Shown here piece by piece: positions 1 to 7,089 of a stretch of 9,647 nucleotides of DNA. The notes beneath the pieces were generated by a model, which saw nothing but the letters and a program-made list of their open reading frames with translations, searched no databases and had not been told where the DNA came from. Position 1 is the stretch's first letter; every line of letters starts with the position of its first letter. Made by a program: the position numbers and the translations under genes. Source of the DNA: a virus (taxonomy: Duplodnaviria > Heunggongvirae > Uroviricota > Caudoviricetes); IMG/VR virus record IMGVR_UViG_2534681656_000013; one strand, 5' to 3'.

Positions 1-39
1 TTAATCATGTCCTTAAATTAATGCAACCTTCGTGCGCAG

Positions 40-58
40 TGCTTTCCCCGCCTCGCCC
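40..58 (-). other. cos: cos site: 19-nt P2/P4-type cohesive-end sequence
   Basis: Plus strand 40-58 is gtgctttccccgcctcgcc; its reverse complement is GGCGAGGCGGGGAAAGCAC, which I recall as the P2/P4 cohesive end. It sits where P4 has cos, just beyond the end of psu. Recalled from memory, not searched. Confidence 0.6.
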
Positions 59-158
59 GCCCGCTTTGCAGGGCGGTTTTAATGCAGTTGCACAGACACG
101 CTCAGACCGCGCCGGGAATGGCGCGGTTTGCAGAAAATGAGGCAGGGAAACGCATGCA

Positions 159-191
159 AAGCCATGCACCTTATCGATGCATGGCTTTTTT
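159..191. terminator. Perfect 10-bp inverted repeat (aagccatgca / tgcatggctt, 9-nt loop) followed by a 6-T run; candidate terminator between cos and psu
   Basis: Arms at 159-168 and 178-187 are exact reverse complements, and T186-T191 follows on the plus strand. The T-run is on the plus strand, so it is better oriented for plus-strand transcripts than for psu. Confidence 0.4.
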
Positions 192-221
192 CAGTAAAAT
201 CGGACGGATTTTCGGGGAGTT

Positions 222-794
222 TTACACAGACTGATGTGATGCCAGTTGCGCACTTTTACGCGAAAAAATCATGTTCTGCGCAGGGGTGAATTTTTCACGG
301 CTGTCATCCACCGAAGCCGCGTCAGGCCTGAATCCGATGGTCGTTAAAATGTCGCTATCCTGTGCGGAATAATTAATTTTTTCCCCCTTCGCAAGCCAGG
401 ACAGAAGGGCTTCACGCAGGGCATCTGTGGCACGCTGTATGGCACAGTTTCGGGCAATGTCCGTCAGTTCACTGTAGCCCATCAACTCCGGTGCCAGTGC
501 GGCCGCCATTACTGTGCCGTGCTGCTGCATAAAATCATTCAGCCGGTCGCGGATGCTGATGTGCTGAACGGCTTCATGCGAACGAATATAACGACCGGCG
601 GCCTGATTCACCTGCCATTTTCTGACTTCGATAATATTGCGTAATTCGTCCAGGCGACTGACGTTTCTGCCTTCTCCTGACAGAAGCCGCAGGTATTCCT
701 GTTCGGCCGCTGCCAGCTCATTTTTGCGTTGCAGCCATGCTGCTTTGTTATTCTGACAGGTGTCAAAGGCCTGCTGTAAGGCTGTGCTTTCCAT
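222..794 (-). CDS. psu: Psu-like protein (polarity suppression / capsid decoration), 190 aa
   Basis: 190-aa ORF, last in a minus-strand sid-delta-psu arrangement. Length matches P4 Psu as I recall it, and it lies next to cos as in P4. Confidence 0.8.
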   Translation of the reverse strand: MESTALQQAFDTCQNNKAAWLQRKNELAAAEQEYLRLLSGEGRNVSRLDELRNIIEVRKWQVNQAAGRYIRSHEAVQHISIRDRLNDFMQQHGTVMAAALAPELMGYSELTDIARNCAIQRATDALREALLSWLAKGEKINYSAQDSDILTTIGFRPDAASVDDSREKFTPAQNMIFSRKSAQLASHQSV

Positions 795-867
795 CGTTAT
801 CTCTTTCTCATCATGCTGAAGAATAAAAATACGGTGTGCGGCGACGGCCGGTGTTAACCGGCAGCCC

Positions 868-1368
868 TCATTCCAGACGCAGCGAATATGATTGTGTTTT
901 TAAGCGTACTGGCGGCAGTTCCTGTTTTTCATACAGGCGTTCTGCCAGTTCGTCCGGCGTGACCGGGCGGACAATGAAACGGTTGATGGTCTGAAGCGTT
1001 TTAAACACCAGACCACAGCCCGGATCCGTGCACACATAAAAACGCTCGGTGACTTCCTGAGACAGACGCCGCGATGTTCTTGACAGTGCAAGGCCTTTAC
1101 ATCTCCGACAACAATATCCGGTAACAAGCATTCTTTTCGGGCGTTTCATACTGCCGGAGGCTGACGTCAGTGAATCGCGGTATCTCTGTTTGCCTGAAAT
1201 GTATTCCATTCCTGAATCTTTACTGTCAGAGAAAAAGCTTTCACTCGCTTCAAATGTCGCAGAGCAATAAATATTCCGGCACTGTGCAATCATTATCTTG
1301 GTGCCATCGTCCATGAAATGTGCGCGACGGGTGTGAGCAACATGTCCACACGACGGGCAGTAAATCAT
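868..1368 (-). CDS. delta: Delta-like late-gene transcriptional activator (duplicated Ogr-type zinc finger), 166 aa
   Basis: Two Cys-rich modules (CPSCGH...C..C and CCRRCKG...CTDPGC) typical of a tandem Ogr-like protein. Length 166 aa matches P4 Delta. Its ATG (1366-1368) overlaps the sid stop (1365-1367) as ATGA. Confidence 0.8.
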   Translation of the reverse strand: MIYCPSCGHVAHTRRAHFMDDGTKIMIAQCRNIYCSATFEASESFFSDSKDSGMEYISGKQRYRDSLTSASGSMKRPKRMLVTGYCCRRCKGLALSRTSRRLSQEVTERFYVCTDPGCGLVFKTLQTINRFIVRPVTPDELAERLYEKQELPPVRLKTQSYSLRLE

Positions 1369-2099
1369 GACAGCAGCCCTCTGGCCTTAAGCTCTGCTCC
1401 CTGCTGGTCTATTTTGTCCTGCCACACCTTGCGCTGTGCCGGTGTGCCTGCCACCTCATAATCCATGTGCGGAAGTGTTGCCGCTGACAGTCCGGTCAGC
1501 CGGAGAACCGGCTCGCCGGTGAGGCTGATTTGCATCTGTTTAATTTTCTGTTCCAGCGATGATTTCACCTGCTGCATGACAGCCTTTTCCGGTGCGACGT
1601 AGCCCTGATGGCCGGTGGTGTTGGCGAGCGGATTTTCCTGTACCAGGATACTCAGATGCATTGCCCGGACAAGCGCCTCACAGGTTTCATTCAGGGCGTG
1701 TTCCAGCTCATGCTCTGCATACAGACTCAGAAGGTGATGATGTGCCTTCCGGTAGGCGGTGGCCGTACTGTCACACGCCCCTTTCAGGCGTTCACGTTCG
1801 AAATTCAGCACCACGGCCAGATTGTCATATTCCTGTACCAGCTCCCTGCGTGCCACGCGCTCAATGTGGCGCTGTTTCAGCTCGTCGCTCAGGACACCAC
1901 CGGCTGCACGAAAGGCCGTGCGCCAGTCGTCAGCGTCGTTTCCGTCGGCCTGCGCCAGCGCATTTTTTTCCTGCTCTGCCCGTTCAATGGCCGTGACGGT
2001 CTCATCCATCAGGCGGGCGTTCTCAAGATGGGCGGCTCTGGCCTTTTCCAGTTGTGCCAGCGCGGGTTGCAGATATTCAGGGATGGTGTTGTCAGACAT
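1365..2099 (-). CDS. sid: Sid-like capsid size-determination (external scaffold) protein, 244 aa from the second in-frame ATG
   Basis: The ORF track gives 250 aa from the ATG at 2115-2117. The second ATG (2097-2099) is preceded by GAGGAG at about 7 nt and yields 244 aa, the length I recall for P4 Sid. Coiled-coil-like, Ala/Glu/Leu-rich sequence; first gene of the minus-strand late operon. Confidence 0.8.
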   Translation of the reverse strand: MSDNTIPEYLQPALAQLEKARAAHLENARLMDETVTAIERAEQEKNALAQADGNDADDWRTAFRAAGGVLSDELKQRHIERVARRELVQEYDNLAVVLNFERERLKGACDSTATAYRKAHHHLLSLYAEHELEHALNETCEALVRAMHLSILVQENPLANTTGHQGYVAPEKAVMQQVKSSLEQKIKQMQISLTGEPVLRLTGLSAATLPHMDYEVAGTPAQRKVWQDKIDQQGAELKARGLLS

Positions 2100-2171
2100 T
2101 TTCCGGCTCCTCGTCACTTCAGGTTAAGAAAATTGTGACGTACACCGGACAACAACACGACGCATTGCAGA

Positions 2172-2189
2172 TGTGCCAGCCCTGACACA
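2172..2189 (-). promoter_or_regulatory. TGT-N12-ACA dyad, candidate Delta/Ogr activator site of a Psid-like late promoter
   Basis: tgt(2172-2174)-N12-aca(2187-2189), centred about 82 bp upstream of the sid ATG at 2099. This fits P2/P4 late promoters with a dyad near -55 and a short leader. A second dyad at 2134-2151 is too close to the ATG to be the same type of site. Chance occurrence of this motif is not negligible. Confidence 0.4.
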
Positions 2190-2261
2190 GGAGACTCATC
2201 CTCAGACCGGCAAGCCAGGAAAAGGTCGCAGGAAAAACCGGCTTACTGTTTGTTTTTTTAT

Positions 2262-2375
2262 ATTTTACTGTTCACCTCTGTTCACCTTAAGAAAAAAGAT
2301 AAGTAATACAGTAAGTTAAAGGTTGAACAATAGCAGTAATGACTGTTCACCGTCTGTTCACCACTGTTCACCCGT
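2262..2375 (+). repeat. ori: ori-like iteron cluster: five perfect direct TGTTCACC octamers with helical-turn spacing, followed by an AT-rich tract
   Basis: TGTTCACC at 2269-2276, 2279-2286, 2344-2351, 2355-2362 and 2365-2372, plus a degenerate copy (gttgaaca, about 2322-2329). AT-rich tract at about 2380-2470. The same octamer recurs in the crr-like region about 4.8 kb away, consistent with alpha-binding type I iterons of P4. Confidence 0.7.
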
Positions 2376-2530
2376 TGATGGACTTTTTGTGCTGTTTATT
2401 ACTTTTTATTTTTATTAATTCACTGAAATAAATAAGAAAAAACAATTTGTATTTCACTATAAAAAATTCCAGGTCCTTCAGAACCCTTTGAGACCCTTCC
2501 AGTCCGGATGGATAAAAAACACACAGCCAT

Positions 2531-2548
2531 TGTAAGGTTGCCGGAACA
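2531..2548 (+). promoter_or_regulatory. TGT-N12-ACA dyad, candidate activator site of a PLL-like late promoter upstream of vis
   Basis: tgt(2531-2533)-N12-aca(2546-2548), centred about 110 bp upstream of the vis ATG (2651). Inference by analogy with P4 PLL, which lies upstream of vis and is late-activated. Confidence 0.3.
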
Positions 2549-2650
2549 AATTCCCCCTGTTGCGTCTGCTGAAAATATTCACAAAATAAAGCGCTACCCG
2601 AAGCCGGACGGACTTATCCGGTGCTGTATGGACATTAACGAGGTATCCCG

Positions 2651-2917
2651 ATGCAAGCTGTTTTTTCTTCCCCGTCTCCCGCCCCTGTTACGCCACTGAT
2701 GCCGCTGCCGGACATCACGCAGGAGCGTTTTTTACGTCTGCCGGAAGTGATGCACCTGTGCGGCCTGTCACGCTCGACCATCTATGAACTCATCCGTAAG
2801 GGGGAATTTCCGCCGCAGGTGAGTCTTGGCGGTAAAAATGTGGCCTGGCTGCACTCTGAAGTCACCGCATGGATGGCCGGGCGCATTGCCGGACGCAAAC
2901 GGGGGTACGACGCATGA
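2651..2917 (+). CDS. vis: Vis / AlpA-family small DNA-binding regulator (excisionase-like HTH), 88 aa
   Basis: 88-aa ORF with an AlpA-type motif ([29 protein letters not shown]) and GAGG about 7 nt upstream of the ATG. Size and position match P4 vis (orf88) as recalled. Confidence 0.8.
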
Positions 2918-3513
2918 TGATGCCCGCTCTGCAAAAACTCCCTTTTTCTGGCTTGCCTTTTTCCGGCATTTGCGGATATAGTTTTTCCGCTGCCGCAAAA
3001 TCGGCAGCCGGGCGTGAGAACCCGAGCAATTCACAGGCGACATATGACGCGCCACGCGTCTTTTTTTGTGTCGCAATCAATGCCACAGAGCGCCAGATTA
3101 TGGTGTGGTGTGTGGTCAGTCGTGCAGATGGCATTCCGTGCATCCTGCCCGCGTCCGCTCATTATGCCGCAGAGTCAATGGTAGCTCAGGCGGGGCAGCC
3201 TCCGGGCTGGCCGGTATCCTGTGAAGCCGGTATTCTCACCCCCGTCTGGGCTATCGCCATCGAGCGTGAGAACTCCGGCGATAGCGTTATTTGCTATTCA
3301 CAGGAGGCTGCCATCATGGCTACAACCCTTACCCCTTCACACCCTGAATTTGTCTTTGTGTTTGCGGCTGTCCGTCGCGCAGACCGTCATCCCCGTATCT
3401 GCATGCTTCGCACCGTCGCCGGTGATGAACGCAGCGCCCGCCGTTCCCTTGTCCGTGACTATGTGCTCTCCCTTGCTGCCCGTCTGCCGGTGGTGGAGGT
3501 GTCCCGTGCGTAA
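2914..3513 (+). CDS. kil: kil-like long open frame (199 codons) spanning the immunity leader; coding status uncertain
   Basis: Three consecutive in-frame ATGs at 2914-2922; the first overlaps the vis stop (ATGA). Reading to the TAA at 3511-3513 gives 199 aa. The sequence is low-complexity and the frame also contains promoter-, terminator- and repeat-like elements, as expected of the P4 immunity leader where nested kil/eta translation modulates termination. The ORF-track start at 2869 lies inside vis and is rejected. Confidence 0.45.
2953..2982 (+). promoter_or_regulatory. Candidate sigma70-type promoter (TTGCCT, 17-18 bp spacer, ATATAG/TATAGT), possible PLE-like early promoter
   Basis: -35-like hexamer at 2953-2958 and -10-like hexamer at 2976-2982, about 400 bp downstream of the putative PLL dyad, matching the PLL-PLE spacing I recall for P4. 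Sequence-only prediction. Confidence 0.25.
3046..3067 (+). terminator. GC hairpin (gacgcg-cca-cgcgtc) followed by 7 T: intrinsic terminator, candidate immunity-type premature terminator
   Basis: Perfect 6-bp GC stem (3046-3051 / 3055-3060) with a 3-nt loop, then T3061-T3067. It lies about 60 nt downstream of the candidate promoter and inside the kil-like frame. Confidence 0.4.
3316..3513 (+). CDS. eta: Nested in-frame internal start within the kil-like frame (65 aa), eta-like
   Basis: ATG at 3316-3318 preceded by AGGAGG (3302-3307) at 8-nt spacing, in the same frame and sharing the stop with the 199-codon frame. P4 is reported to have eta nested in frame within kil; assignment is by analogy. 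Confidence 0.4.
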
Positions 3514-3793
3514 TAAAAAAGCCCCTCAGACCGTCTCAGCACGTCATGACGCCCGTGAACACCTCAGCATTGAGGCTTACCATAAGCTCAACCGCGCCAG
3601 CGCCGTATCCCGGTTTGTTGGGGGTGATTTGATTCACCGTGAACTCTCCGGCCTGCATCAGCTCTACATTCCGCATATTTTCAGCTACCTGAATGAAGAT
3701 ATTGATTTTGTGCTGAATGAGCTGAAAGCCAAAGGCCTGTGCCGCGATTTTCTCGCCCAGCAGAAAGACCGGGGAGACAGGACGCATGTTTGA
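3506..3793 (+). CDS. epsilon: Epsilon-like protein (helper-prophage derepression), 95 aa from a GTG start
   Basis: GTG at 3506-3508 preceded by GGAGG (3495-3499). The start overlaps the end of the kil/eta frame, and the stop (3791-3793) overlaps the orf151 start (3786). Position immediately upstream of orf151 matches P4 order; the 95-aa length fits my uncertain recollection of P4 epsilon. Confidence 0.6.
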
Positions 3794-4241
3794 TTTTCCC
3801 CAGCCCGGTGAGATTTACCGTTCTGCCGGTTTTCCCGATGTGGCCGTGGTCGGCATTCTGGAAGACGGTATTCCGTGGGAAATGCCGTACCGCTGCCCGG
3901 ACATTGTCTGGAACCCGTACCGCCGTAAATTCAGTATCCTTGTGCGTATCCTCGCTGACGGGCGCACCACAGACATCCCGCTGGGGCGTTTTCTGCGGGA
4001 ATTTACCTGTGACCGTCCTGACCTGTTTAAACGCAGCCCCGTAAACCGGCATGCGGTACTGAAAGAAATGGCCGGAGACCCGGAATTACAGAAATGGCGG
4101 GAGAAATATCTGGATATTTACCCGCAGGACACTGTTCCGGCCAGCCGGGCGGCACCGGTGGCGCGGGAATGGCGGGAAATTCCCCGCACGGAGCCTGACC
4201 CAGAAATCACCCCGGATAACAGTTACCGCAATTATCTGTAA
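3786..4241 (+). CDS. Hypothetical protein, P4 orf151-like (151 aa)
   Basis: 151-aa ORF, start overlapping the epsilon stop, in the position of P4 orf151 between epsilon and alpha. Function unknown. Confidence 0.7.
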   Translation: MFDFPQPGEIYRSAGFPDVAVVGILEDGIPWEMPYRCPDIVWNPYRRKFSILVRILADGRTTDIPLGRFLREFTCDRPDLFKRSPVNRHAVLKEMAGDPELQKWREKYLDIYPQDTVPASRAAPVAREWREIPRTEPDPEITPDNSYRNYL

Positions 4242-4376
4242 TTAAAAAACGACACCCGAAAAATTAAATGTGCGTATTCGCGCAGGGATACGCACGTCTT
4301 CAGGAGACGCAGATATGCCTTATCAGTTAATGCAACCGGCACGGAATGCAGTCATCTGTCACAGGGAGGAAAGCAA

Positions 4377-4697
4377 ATGAAACCCCCCTTACCGCCCGTC
4401 TTACGCGCAGCCCTTTACCGTCGTGCTGTCGCCTGTGCCTGGCTGACCGTGTGCGAACGTCAGCATCGCTACCCGCATCTCACCCTTGAGTCACTGGAGG
4501 CGGCCATCGCCGCTGAGCTGGAGGGCTTTTATCTGCGCCAGCACGGTGAGGAAAAAGGGCGTCAGATAGCCTGTGCCCTGCTGGAAGATTTAATGGAATC
4601 CGGCCCCCTGAAGGCCGCGCCGTCGCTGTCCTTTCTCGGGCTGGTTGTGATGGATGAACTCTGTGCCCGTCACATAAAAGCGCCGGTACTGCACTGA
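4377..4697 (+). CDS. Hypothetical protein, P4 orf106-like (106 aa)
   Basis: 106-aa ORF with GGGAGG upstream, ending 14 bp before the alpha start. Size and position match P4 orf106. Confidence 0.7.
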
Positions 4698-4711
4698 AGG
4701 AGAACAACACC

Positions 4712-7045
4712 ATGAAAATGAACGTAACCGCCACCGTCAGCCATGCGCTCGGCCACTGGCCGCGTATTCTCCCGGCGCTGGGGATTCAGGTGCTGAAAAA
4801 CCGTCATCAGCCCTGTCCGGTCTGTGGCGGGAGTGACCGCTTCCGTTTTGATGACAGGGAGGGGCGCGGCACCTGGTACTGCAATCAGTGTGGTGCCGGT
4901 GACGGCCTGAAACTGGTTGAAAAGGTGTTTGGTGTTTCCCCGTCCGACGCGGCCGCAAAGGTGGCTGCCGTGACCGGCAGCCTGCCCCCGGCTGACCCGG
5001 CAGTGACGGCCGCCGCCGGCGCTGAAACAGACGCTGCCCGGAAGAACGCCGCCGCACTGGCACAAACCCTGATGGCAAAAACCCGTCCCGGAACCGGTAA
5101 CGCCTACCTGACCCGCAAGGGCTTTCCCGGCCGGGAATGCCGGATGCTGACCGGCACACACAGAGCCGGTGGCGTGAGCTGGTGCGCCGGTGACCTTGTG
5201 GTGCCACTGTATGACGACAGCGGCGAACTGGTTAACCTTCAGTTAATCAGTGCTGACGGCCGTAAGCGCACCCTGAAAGGCGGACAGGTCAGGGGCACCT
5301 GTCACACCCTTGAAGGACAGAATCAGGCCGGAAAACGTCTGTGGATAGCGGAGGGATACGCGACCGCACTTACCGTGCATCACCTGACCGGTGAAACGGT
5401 GATGGTGGCGCTTTCTTCCGTGAACCTCCTTTCTCTGGCCAGCCTTGCCCGGCAGAAGCATCCGGCCTGTCAGATTGTCCTTGCTGCTGACCGTGACCTC
5501 AGCGGTGACGGCCAGAAAAAAGCCGCCGCAGCCGCAGATGCGTGTGAAGGTGTTGTTGCCCTGCCGCCGGTCTTCGGTGACTGGAATGATGCCTTCACGC
5601 AGTACGGCGGGGGGGCCACCCGTAAGGCCATTTATGATGCCATCCGGCCACCGGCTGAAAGCCCGTTCGACACCATGAGCGAAGCGGAGTTTTCCGCCAT
5701 GAGTACCAGCGAAAAGGCCATGCGTATCTATGAGCATTACGGCGAGGCGCTCGCGGTCGATGCCAACGGCCAGCTTCTGTCCCGCTATGAAAATGGTGTC
5801 TGGAAGGTGCTGCCGCCACAGGACTTTGCCCGGGATGTGGCCGGGCTGTTTCAGCGTCTGCGCGCGCCGTTCTCCTCCGGGAAGGTGGCCTCCGTGGTGG
5901 ACACCCTGAAGCTGATTATTCCGCAGCAGGAAGCCCCCTCCCGCCGCCTGATTGGCTTTCGTAACGGCGTGCTCGACACGCAGAACGGCACGTTCCACCC
6001 GCACAGTCCGTCACACTGGATGCGCACCCTGTGCGATGTGGATTTCACCCCGCCGGTGGACGGTGAAACGCTGGAGACCCACGCCCCCGCGTTCTGGCGC
6101 TGGCTTGACCGTGCCGCCGGTGGCCGTGCGGAAAAACGCGACGTGATTCTGGCCGCACTGTTTATGGTGCTGGCAAACCGCTACGACTGGCAGCTCTTTC
6201 TGGAGGTGACCGGTCCCGGCGGCAGCGGCAAAAGTATCATGGCCGAAATAGCCACCCTGCTGGCCGGTGAGGATAACGCCACGTCGGCCACCATTGAGAC
6301 GCTGGAATCCCCGCGTGAACGTGCCGCGTTAACTGGCTTCTCACTGATACGCCTGCCGGACCAGGAAAAATGGAGCGGCGACGGAGCCGGACTCAAGGCC
6401 ATCACCGGCGGCGATGCGGTGTCCGTTGACCCGAAATACCGGGATGCGTACTCCACGCACATCCCGGCGGTGATTCTGGCCGTGAACAATAACCCGATGC
6501 GCTTCACCGACCGCAGCGGCGGCGTGTCACGCCGGCGGGTGATTATTCACTTCCCGGAACAGATAGCCCCGCAGGAGCGCGACCCGCAGCTTAAGGACAA
6601 AATCACCCGCGAGCTGGCGGTCATCGTGCGTCACCTGATGCAGAAGTTCAGCGACCCGATGCTCGCCCGGTCACTGCTTCAGTCCCAGCAGAACTCAGAC
6701 GAGGCACTGAACATCAAACGGGATGCCGACCCGACGTTTGATTTTATCGGCTATCTGGAAACCCTGCCGCAGACCAGCGGCATGTATATGGGGAACGCCA
6801 GTATCATCCCGCGTAATTACCGTAAATACCTCTATCACGCCTATCTGGCCTACATGGAGGCAAACGGCTACCGGAATGTACTCAGTCTGAAAATGTTCGG
6901 GCTGGGGCTGCCGGTGATGCTGAAGGAATACGGACTGAATTACGAGAAGCGCCATACCAAACAGGGGATACAGACCAACCTGACGCTGAAAGAGGAAAGC
7001 TACGGCGACTGGCTGCCAAAATGTGACGACCCTGCAATAGCCTGA
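4712..7045 (+). CDS. alpha: Alpha-type bifunctional DNA primase-helicase (zinc-binding primase, TOPRIM, superfamily-3 helicase), 777 aa
   Basis: N-terminal CPVCGG...YCNQCG zinc motif, a Walker A box (GPGGSGKS, about 6211-6234), AAGGAG RBS, and a length of 777 aa equal to P4 alpha as recalled. Flanked by TGTTCACC iteron clusters on both sides. Confidence 0.93.
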   Translation: MKMNVTATVSHALGHWPRILPALGIQVLKNRHQPCPVCGGSDRFRFDDREGRGTWYCNQCGAGDGLKLVEKVFGVSPSDAAAKVAAVTGSLPPADPAVTAAAGAETDAARKNAAALAQTLMAKTRPGTGNAYLTRKGFPGRECRMLTGTHRAGGVSWCAGDLVVPLYDDSGELVNLQLISADGRKRTLKGGQVRGTCHTLEGQNQAGKRLWIAEGYATALTVHHLTGETVMVALSSVNLLSLASLARQKHPACQIVLAADRDLSGDGQKKAAAAADACEGVVALPPVFGDWNDAFTQYGGGATRKAIYDAIRPPAESPFDTMSEAEFSAMSTSEKAMRIYEHYGEALAVDANGQLLSRYENGVWKVLPPQDFARDVAGLFQRLRAPFSSGKVASVVDTLKLIIPQQEAPSRRLIGFRNGVLDTQNGTFHPHSPSHWMRTLCDVDFTPPVDGETLETHAPAFWRWLDRAAGGRAEKRDVILAALFMVLANRYDWQLFLEVTGPGGSGKSIMAEIATLLAGEDNATSATIETLESPRERAALTGFSLIRLPDQEKWSGDGAGLKAITGGDAVSVDPKYRDAYSTHIPAVILAVNNNPMRFTDRSGGVSRRRVIIHFPEQIAPQERDPQLKDKITRELAVIVRHLMQKFSDPMLARSLLQSQQNSDEALNIKRDADPTFDFIGYLETLPQTSGMYMGNASIIPRNYRKYLYHAYLAYMEANGYRNVLSLKMFGLGLPVMLKEYGLNYEKRHTKQGIQTNLTLKEESYGDWLPKCDDPAIA

Positions 7046-7052
7046 CCCACCT

Positions 7053-7078
7053 GACCGGCATCTGCCGGTCTTTTTTTT
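7053..7078 (+). terminator. Rho-independent terminator of the alpha operon (gaccggc-atct-gccggtc followed by 8 T)
   Basis: 7-bp GC-rich stem (7053-7059 / 7064-7070) with a 4-nt loop, then T7071-T7078, immediately after the alpha stop (7043-7045). Confidence 0.75.
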
Positions 7079-7089
7079 ATCCCGACATC

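Follow-up and report, generated by a model that had tools for sequence, protein, structure and literature searches.

Experiments from the early 1990s onwards have established how CI RNA confers immunity in the satellite phage P4, in which the kil protein is toxic. CI RNA arises by processing, and its pairing with seqA and seqC leads to premature termination (PMC4825925); it is an RNase P substrate (PMC5499578), and seqA and CI are homologues of IsrK and C4, respectively (PMC3632133). The immI region of P1 and P7 (Rfam RF01695, RF03163; C4, a1/b1, a2/b2, icd, ant) uses an RNA of the same family: one target copy precedes the antisense RNA, and a second, behind it, covers the ribosome-binding site of the Icd-like gene, with ant translationally coupled downstream. 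In Salmonella Gifsy-1, the small RNA IsrK (Rfam RF01394) activates translation of orf45-anrP and hence antQ; P4 seqA is a structural homologue of IsrK, and STnc1160, downstream, may act like CI (PMC4825925). The linear-plasmid prophages N15, phiKO2, and PY54 carry a C4-like RNA together with icd-antA-antB.

The window, that is the whole stretch of 9,647 nt analysed here, appears from its sequence to hold an immunity region that has been much studied before, that of satellite phage P4, so that the feature is a known one. We put at about 95% the probability that a P4 satellite prophage has its immunity region here, working by the CI antisense RNA; no result of the analysis speaks against this. 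Phage P4 is collinear with positions 58-7393 over 7.3 kb (98.1% identity; 98.9% for 2600-3800). In an alignment of 2900-3530, the part from the promoter PLE to the kil start is identical to P4 save for one CG/GC swap at 2988-2989; the further differences are three substitutions, all inside kil, and the CI RNA gene is 100% identical. The layout PLE - seqA - t1 - cI/seqB - seqC - kil/eta of P4 (GenBank X51522 / NC_001609) marks the two as the same element, and the gene order psu-delta-sid-ori-vis-immunity-epsilon-ORF151-ORF106-alpha-crr is common to both. The arrangement, which the preliminary description had called P4-like, is thus P4's own by alignment, with Rfam C4 between the two motif modules and isrK and c4-a1b1 on module 1. 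The prophage differs from P4 in its site and flanks: it adjoins the 3′ end of selC, whereas the attP of P4 corresponds to leuX; P4 homology stops at 7393, and the left flank past cos is also unlike P4. The immunity region is unaffected by these differences.

The features described below, from vis to epsilon, lie on the plus strand. Upstream is vis (ORF88, 2651-2917), an AlpA-family HTH regulator (Pfam Phage_AlpA, E 7e-21) annotated in P4 as "excisionase and transcriptional regulator"; at ATGA (2914-2917), the vis stop codon and the start codon of eta overlap. The promoter PLE (2953-2982; -35 TTGCCT at 2953-2958, 18-nt spacer, -10 TATAGT at 2977-2982) is the sole sigma-70-like site recovered by the promoter scan in 2300-3900, and its -10 matches the position of the "consensus -10" feature of P4 record X02534. 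The leader RNA (2989-3066; seqA in P4, IsrK-like in Rfam), of 78 nt, fits the isrK model from end to end, Rho-independent terminator included (69.7 bits, gathering threshold 50; model positions 1-77), with the model start at 2989, 7 nt downstream of PLE; c4-a1b1 matches at 2976-3028 (49.5 bits vs. a gathering threshold of 46.7). The leader consists of a hairpin (2989-3008), a small hairpin (3009-3024) whose loop presents the b1 target, the a1 target in single-stranded form, and t1; the leader's helices are 98-100% paired among related loci, with compensatory changes. The b1 target (GUGAGAA, 3014-3020) lies within the first GCGTGAGAAC, the a1 target (UUCACAGG, 3030-3037) within the first ATTCACAGG.

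The hairpin-T7 terminator noticed in the preliminary description (3046-3067), an intrinsic terminator that separates PLE from the CI gene, was recovered by the terminator scan and provides the 3′ hairpin in the isrK match: GACGCG-CCA-CGCGTC at 3046-3060, followed by T7 at 3061-3067. It is present in nearly all relatives, and its outermost stem pair switches between G-C and C-G (58 and 42 loci, respectively). We take it to be t1 of Briani et al. 2000. The ATG at 3044, just before it, was rejected as a start: its 46-codon ORF (3044-3184) is in the wrong frame, the ATG occurs in 8 of 105 loci, no Pfam match was obtained, and the encoded spacer varies from 18 to 107 nt. Being in a different frame from ATG 3316, it does not belong to the nested in-frame starts that had been proposed, of which ATG 3316 stands.

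Between the modules lies the CI RNA gene (C4 family, 3174-3261; Rfam C4, 74.9 bits, gathering threshold 45, E 1e-13), with a 17-bp closing stem (3179-3195 / 3240-3256), hairpin 1 (3196-3209), and hairpin 2 (3210-3231). Its helices are 99.8-100% paired, with compensatory changes in the closing stem and in hairpin 1; hairpin 2 is invariant. We infer that the mature CI RNA spans about 3180-3258. A tRNA-like GCCA tail follows the long stem (3256-3259), a succession that would mimic an RNase P substrate; for the processing as such we rely on published work.

A seqB exists here, although no convincing stretch of that kind had at first been seen. Its first half, the a′ box UCCUGUGAA (3217-3225), is part of the hairpin 2 loop of CI and pairs with the ATTCACAGG motif; its second half, the b′ box UUCUCAC (3233-3239), lies in a single-stranded joint of CI and pairs with the GCGTGAGAAC motif. 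The candidate at 3229-3242, judged unconvincing at the time, contains the true b′ box; ATTCACAGG, complementary to the hairpin-loop UCCUGUGAA at 3217-3225, had been overlooked as a second target. The a′ box is a perfect complement to 3297-3305 (9 nt) and, through 3218-3225, to 3030-3037 (8 bp), and covaries with both; the b′ box complements both GUGAGAA copies (7 bp with b1). Flanking pairs included, the seqA-CI duplex comprises about 24 bp (core 3009-3037 / 3218-3244; RNAduplex total -40.9 kcal/mol), and no plus-strand sequence anywhere in the window is a better partner for the CI core than seqA and seqC.

The second target copy, seqC, precedes kil. Its b2 target (GUGAGAA, 3266-3272) lies within the second GCGTGAGAAC, which sits, as described before, in the 18-nt loop of a 9-bp hairpin (3250-3285); the stem, GCUAUCGCC / GGCGAUAGC, is a perfect inverted repeat (3250-3258 / 3277-3285). 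The a2 target UUCACAGGA (3297-3305; 9 bp to 3217-3225) overlaps the kil Shine-Dalgarno sequence AGGAGG (3302-3307), 9 nt upstream of the ATG. Both modules thus contain both motifs, as had been claimed, while the gaps of the shared layout differ (7 nt in module 1, 22 nt in module 2). Likewise, the Shine-Dalgarno sequence ascribed to each holds for module 2 (GGAG in 92 of 105 loci, before an invariant ATG), and module 1 has a conserved GGCGAC in its place; the CAT-ATG common to both is an incidental likeness.

Duplication of both motifs was borne out. GCGTGAGAAC occurs exactly twice in the window (3012-3021 and 3264-3273), against a chance expectation of 0.02, with two copies in 0 of 200 shuffles; ATTCACAGG also occurs exactly twice (3029-3037 and 3296-3304), against an expectation of 0.10, with two copies in 1 of 200 shuffles. 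Whether the copies are conserved targets in related satellites was tested by covariation with the antisense RNA across 105 distinct related loci of Enterobacterales, with slid alignments as controls. In the seqA-CI duplex, 99.5% of cells are paired, with double changes in 12 of 15 pairs and 404 compensated cells; in the seqC-CI duplex, the figures are 96.2%, 12 of 16 pairs, and 376 cells. The slid controls give 35-52% of cells paired. By box, b1 is paired in 100% of cells and b2 in 99.9%, each with compensatory changes in six of seven pairs; for a1, seven contiguous pairs are 99.2% paired, five of them with compensatory changes, and the eighth (98.0% paired) covaries too; a2 is paired in 93.3% of cells, with compensatory changes in six of nine pairs. 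Both motif copies covary with the antisense RNA throughout this set, so they are not chance repeats, the outcome against which the preliminary description had cautioned.

Of 110 enterobacterial loci, 94-110 have exact cognate targets, the number varying with box and side, whereas non-cognate boxes match at 0-4%. Eight pattern matches were without targets (one with a single stray a-target match), and include all listed actinobacterial and Desulfobacterales genomes. The a′ box comes in 18 types and the b′ box in 9; together they form 37 combinations, and in every one of these both targets match. As far as these alignments can tell, two independently exchangeable boxes make up the immunity specificity of P4-like satellites in enterobacteria, and the comparative set offers a clean picture of it.

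The region is also covered by a long eta-type ORF of 199 codons (2914-3513; ATG at 2914, 2917, and 2920), which starts upstream of PLE, runs across all of the RNA elements, and has kil as its final part. kil itself (3316-3513) encodes a 65-codon Icd-like protein (NCBIfam phage_ICD_like NF033153, E 1.6e-21) and is the first gene translated from PLE transcripts. The earlier reading of a nested 65-codon ORF from ATG 3316 agrees with this: the ORF ends at 3513, and its ATG is in frame with 2869/2914-3513, with the same stop. This ATG is invariant in the 105 loci, and the ORFs of relatives are mostly of 63-67 codons. Standard annotation hides the RNA region behind a RefSeq 199-aa "Icd-like" protein, with the Pfam Ash family lying over the RNA genes.

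Such annotation might be taken to mean that the region is merely a long protein-coding gene ("Icd-like" or "Ash", 199 codons) and that the motif modules are chance or relic repeats of no function. RefSeq indeed has 2914-3513 as a single 600-nt "Icd-like" CDS, Pfam Phage_ASH matches residues 22-146 of the eta ORF, and the kil frame is open past the 5′ end of the leader in 71 of 85 relatives (the other two frames in 1 and 10). Yet both motifs are far above chance frequency, three Rfam structured-RNA models score above threshold, the RNA helices carry compensatory changes, and the targets covary base for base with the antisense boxes in 105 loci. Protein-coding constraint cannot yield such covariation; a purely protein-coding region is therefore refuted, and we give it practically no credence. 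The open frame is better explained by eta read-through translation coexisting with the RNA elements of a P4 immunity region.

The comparison with P1-type elements is closer. Their order of elements was seen directly in a P1-like plasmid (L012) and in phage D6 (L016), and the isrK-then-C4 pair of Rfam matches occurs in 15 of 15 diverged loci, including P1-like, D6, phiKO2, and PY54; the P1-type box sequences are unlike those of P4, yet covary in the same way. The spacer from terminator to antisense RNA is 107 nt in P4 and 44 nt in L012 and L016, and the long eta frame is a feature of P4 that sets it apart from P1-type elements. There, icd is followed by an antirepressor (KilAC/Ant), whereas here the icd-like kil is followed by epsilon and replication genes. 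Downstream of kil, epsilon (3506-3793; Pfam Derepression, E 9e-51, and P4 annotation) comes next in the operon under this control and encodes the helper derepression protein; ORF151, ORF106, and the alpha primase follow, with DUF5375 among the domains of these downstream genes. Annotation and Pfam revealed no KilAC/Ant domain or antirepressor gene (ant) downstream of kil. The region is therefore a homologous module and not a P1-type immI. N15, phiKO2, and PY54 share with the window the order isrK-like, C4, icd and the cognate boxes; they differ in a far shorter spacer (24-25 nt), in a-box pairing with wobbles or bulges, and in antirepressor genes downstream.

The region could nevertheless act as immI does: C4 would only block icd translation, an antirepressor downstream would be subject to Rho-dependent polarity, and antisense pairing would not stimulate termination in the leader. 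Both systems have an RNA of this family, the a1b1/a2b2 layout, and a first gene of the Icd-like kind; a2 overlaps the Shine-Dalgarno sequence, and folding gives t1 no clear dependence on CI. In thermodynamic folding, t1 forms about equally with or without blocked seqA boxes (pair probabilities of 0.85-0.98 vs. 0.88-1.0), so that stimulation of t1 by CI is unexplained by simple equilibrium structure; an antiterminator disrupted by CI was considered, and the nascent fold to 3054 shows a transient GGCG/CGCC pairing, but at equilibrium t1 forms anyway. On the other hand, Briani et al. are said to have found, in 2000, that CI enhances termination at t1 in vitro. No antirepressor comes next but epsilon, ORF151, ORF106, and the alpha primase, and the sequence is that of P4, for which CI-dependent termination is reported (PMC4825925). 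Action of the immI type alone is therefore very improbable, and control of the P4 type is preferred. The two mechanisms are not exclusive, a block of kil translation being part of the P4 model as well.

It is also improbable, though less so, that the terminated leader (2989-3066) is a trans-acting activator of the IsrK type, opening an inactive longer mRNA as in Gifsy-1, rather than only a passive target of CI. The full-length isrK match (69.7 bits) with its own terminator would suit such a role. IsrK, which serves both as an sRNA and as an mRNA, is described as homologous in structure to P4 seqA (PMC4825925), and TraDIS in S. Typhi showed a requirement for the IsrK-like elements that P4-like prophages carry (PMC3632133). 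Genes of the orf45/anrP/antQ type, however, were absent from the annotation of the window and of P4; CI pairing fully explains the covariation, and the window offers no independent sign of another target.

On the observed P4 identity, RNA families and structures, bipartite complementarity with covariation, Shine-Dalgarno overlap, and conservation of the nested frame, control by CI would proceed as follows. Constitutive PLE would start an untranslated leader at about 2989, with target copy 1 (seqA; b1 at 3014-3020 in the small hairpin loop, a1 at 3030-3037) and then t1 (3046-3067). Read-through transcripts would include CI RNA (3174-3261), a long hairpin resembling a tRNA acceptor, with a GCCA tail, whose 5′ end would be cut by RNase P and whose 3′ end would be trimmed (from the literature or by inference). 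Mature CI would expose a′ in the hairpin 2 loop and b′ in the adjacent single-stranded joint, and these would pair antiparallel with copy 1 and with copy 2 (seqC; b2 at 3266-3272, a2 at 3297-3305). Pairing with seqA would raise t1 termination and so autoregulate CI, again partly on literature grounds; pairing with seqC would cover the kil Shine-Dalgarno sequence, leaving kil untranslated, and transcription would end before epsilon and alpha. The prophage would thus keep its replication and helper-derepression genes silent, and any incoming P4 whose boxes are the same would be shut down. Transcripts from the upstream late promoter (PLL) would include vis; translation from the eta start at 2914 would run through the leader, and late transcripts would thereby escape CI control.

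As a discovery the region carries little weight, all three of its RNA elements being already in Rfam; a bipartite antisense control region had been recognised correctly from the letters alone. A third pairing is unsupported: CI hairpin 1 (3194-3203) has a 10-nt perfect complement in the kil Shine-Dalgarno region (3303-3312), which is kept in 86.8% of cells (86.2% in shuffles), with compensatory changes almost nil, and which one locus (L013) lacks.

The seqC hairpin is 98.9% paired, with compensatory changes in five of nine pairs. It was considered as an intrinsic terminator; its tail is not U-rich in most relatives, and such a role is therefore not claimed. Its 5′ arm doubles as the 3′ arm of the CI closing stem with the GCC tail, so the precursor may form either of two predicted folds. 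In one, the CI stem of the RNase P type is complete; in the other, the CI stem is shortened and the hairpin forms, displaying b2 in the loop. Watson-Crick pairing of the downstream arm stays perfect where the CI stem tolerates mere G-U, and the two folds are nearly isoenergetic across the 105 loci. The hairpin (3250-3258 / 3277-3285) is conceivably half of a conserved and possibly undescribed two-state RNA switch, an idea we regard as doubtful but not negligible. If true, the switch could couple target presentation to CI maturation, and could be the structural basis of t4, which we take to be the atypical, factor-independent terminator of P4.

The stretch belongs to the immunity system of bacteriophage P4, every testable defining feature of which was found in it. 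The feature is one already known; the earlier observation was real, and its interpretation is supported and completed here. Phage P4 was the match to 2600-3800 in a BLAST search of phage records (98.9% identity) and is collinear with window 58-7393, from the cos end to crr (98.1% identity). Rfam models for isrK (2989-3066, 69.7 bits), c4-a1b1 (2976-3028, 49.5 bits) and C4 antisense RNA (3174-3261, 74.9 bits) matched above their curated thresholds. The likeness to the P4 arrangement noticed in the preliminary description is thus one of identity: in a direct alignment of 2900-3530 with the P4 reference, mismatches were limited to 2988-2989 (CG vs GC) and three positions in kil, and all RNA determinants are therefore P4's own. 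This stretch is present in about one in five complete E. coli genomes, where its annotation consists of proteins only (an HTH regulator, a ~199-aa 'Icd-like' protein, and a derepression protein).

At 2988-2989, the P4 reference (X51522 / NC_001609) reads GC; the window's version, CCGCTGCC, is common to roughly half of 104 related loci, the P4 reading to none of the 104, and GC in the P4 record is probably an old sequencing error. With the window's version, the first leader hairpin has 7 bp.

The duplicated motifs, the hairpin-T7, the 9-bp hairpin, and the nested 65-codon ORF at 3316 were all confirmed. The 9.6-kb window has two copies of GCGTGAGAAC (3012-3021 and 3264-3273; 0.02 copies expected by chance) and two of ATTCACAGG (3029-3037 and 3296-3304; 0.10 expected), and the second GCGTGAGAAC is enclosed by a perfect 9-bp inverted repeat (3250-3258 / 3277-3285). 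The two modules were described as sharing one layout, which holds for the presence of both motifs in each; the spacing between motifs is 7 nt in module 1 vs 22 nt in module 2, and module 1 lacks the Shine-Dalgarno ascribed to it. A sigma-70-like promoter, TTGCCT-18-TATAGT (2953-2982), is the sole such site in 2300-3900, and the terminator scan returned the hairpin GACGCG-CCA-CGCGTC followed by T7 at 3046-3067. Converted to window positions (11681 minus the P4 record coordinate), P4 record X02534 annotates a -10 at 2977-2982 and a 'region of dyad symmetry' coinciding exactly with the stem of the CI RNA (~3180-3255).

The CI RNA, a member of the C4 family of antisense RNAs, was modeled on the Rfam C4 fold, with a closing stem of 17 bp (3179-3195 / 3240-3256), hairpin 1 (3196-3209), hairpin 2 (3210-3231), and an 8-nt single-stranded joint holding UUCUCAC (3233-3239). 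The loop of hairpin 2 carries UCCUGUGAA (3217-3225, box a'), perfectly complementary to TTCACAGG (3030-3037) in the upstream target seqA and to TTCACAGGA (3297-3305) in the downstream target seqC; UUCUCAC (box b') complements both GTGAGAA copies (3014-3020 and 3266-3272). Each of the two motifs is thus a target, and the antisense element is bipartite. The seqB-like stretch that could not be found earlier between the modules is thus present (3217-3225 plus 3233-3239); the weak candidate then proposed (3229-3242) does hold its second half, the first having been overlooked. The seqA-CI duplex comprises ~24 bp in the core 3009-3037 / 3218-3244, flanking pairs counted (RNAduplex total -40.9 kcal/mol), and nowhere in the window does the CI core have better plus-strand partners than seqA and seqC.

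Conservation of the targets was assessed in related loci. In 15 diverged loci (E. coli chromosomes, P1-like plasmids, phages D6, phiKO2, PY54, and an Enterobacter phage), isrK was followed by C4 in all 15, and both boxes and both target copies change in concert in each. A structure-only pattern of hairpin 2, used in one scan of a one-genome-per-species collection, yielded 117 stretches; fetched loci, earlier loci, and the window together gave 118 pattern matches with full flanks. The cognate b-target was found upstream in 110 and downstream in 109 of these, and the exact a-target in 94 and 100, respectively; control boxes taken from other loci matched in 0-4%. Targets were missing from eight pattern matches (one of which has a lone stray a-target match). 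All the actinobacterial and Desulfobacterales genomes listed are among these eight, which therefore serve as negative controls. Covariation was measured over 105 distinct loci aligned with MAFFT: for seqA-CI, 99.5% of cells are paired, with changes on both sides in 12/15 pairs and 404 compensated cells (35-52% of cells paired in slid controls); for seqC-CI, 96.2%, 12/16 pairs, and 376 compensated cells. Within the leader and within CI, the cis helices covary too. The copies of each motif are thus conserved targets that determine specificity, and not the unconserved chance repeats considered as the alternative. Among 110 real enterobacterial loci (L004-L134), 18 a' types and 9 b' types occur in 37 combinations, matched at both targets; the boxes therefore reassort independently, and immunity specificity in these loci is modular. 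Few loci of the species-level sample have the P4 combination, CCTGTGAA with TTCTCAC.

The hairpin at 3250-3285 displays the b-target of seqC; its 5' arm doubles as the 3' arm and GCC tail of the CI stem, and the hairpin competes with the base of that stem. It covaries (98.9% of cells paired, 5/9 pairs compensated), its downstream arm compensating to Watson-Crick where the CI stem merely tolerates G-U, and the two folds are nearly isoenergetic (mean difference +1.2 kcal/mol; alternative better in 34/105 loci). It may act as a switch in processing or target presentation, and is the sole loose thread with some potential for novelty.

The ORF at 3316-3513 is P4 kil, and its 65-aa product has a match to NCBIfam phage_ICD_like (E 1.6e-21). 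The kil ATG is invariant, is preceded by GGAG in 92/105 loci, and follows a Shine-Dalgarno, AGGAGG (3302-3307), overlapped by the a-target of seqC. ATG 3044, previously taken for a nested in-frame start, lies in a different frame, is present in 8/105 loci only, and opens an ORF without a family match; the start assignment is rejected. Hairpin 1 of CI, GGCAGCCUCC (3194-3203), is perfectly complementary over 10 nt to the kil Shine-Dalgarno region, GGAGGCUGCC (3303-3312); this complementarity is widely retained but missing in the related locus L013, and the pairing gave no covariation signal (86.8% of cells paired vs 86.2% in shuffles).

The kil frame and stop are common to a long ORF (2869/2914-3513) beginning at ATGATGATG (2914-2922), which overlaps the stop codon of the upstream gene vis (ATGA). 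This frame is open past the leader 5' end in 71/85 distinct P4-like loci (the other two frames in 1 and 10), and the leader length is divisible by three in 70/85. Selection therefore acts on a nested eta-type frame although it crosses two RNA genes, and an eta-like read-through ORF is conserved well beyond P4. Pfam PF10554 ('Ash protein family') matches 2977-3352 (aa 22-146 of ORF 2914-3513), i.e., the isrK/seqA leader and CI/C4 stretch, and also 510-629 of L012, a P1-like plasmid; RefSeq 'ash family protein' CDSs directly overlie C4 genes in P1-like plasmids. Much of this family seems to consist of translated RNA genes.

P4 keeps its replication genes off by premature termination, and its CI RNA arises by processing of an untranslated transcript and pairs as antisense with seqA upstream and seqC downstream of cI (PMC4825925). 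IsrK and C4 are structural homologues of seqA and CI (PMC3632133), and hairpin-type RNase P substrates include CI RNA and P1/P7 C4 (PMC5499578). As far as can be read from sequence, the features of the window are consistent with each of the steps described for P4 immunity. The terminator between the immunity promoter PLE and cI is called t1, the efficiency of which reportedly depends on CI and seqA; in equilibrium folding, no reason was visible for its stimulation by CI. Another terminator, t4, which is atypical, and the Rho-dependent timm are said to lie downstream of cI, overexpressed kil is reportedly toxic, and transcripts from the late promoter PLL are reportedly insensitive to immunity because eta is translated on them.

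Here icd is not followed by an antirepressor, so the region does not count as a P1-type immI, although it is homologous to c4-icd-ant of P1/P7. Its leader belongs to the isrK RNA family, and the Gifsy-1 downstream genes are absent from the window. The t1-to-CI-gene spacer (3067-3173) is 107 nt in P4 and 18-98 nt in relatives, and is poorly conserved.

P4 homology ends at 7393, beyond which lie the 3'-terminal 21 nt of tRNA-Sec (selC, ~7524-7544); the prophage therefore abuts selC, not the leuX site of P4, with its own integrase outside the window. After the selC end follow a selC-island tyrosine integrase (7843-9034), 99.9% identical to its counterpart in ETEC H10407 and split by a 1-nt insertion into ORFs of 278 and 158 codons, and an IS3-family element. 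In window 1-57, only the last ~25 nt match P4 across the joined cos ends, and 1-32 diverge, which is consistent with a variable cargo/defence hotspot beside psu; the close relative L001 carries an nSTAND1 NTPase gene at this place.
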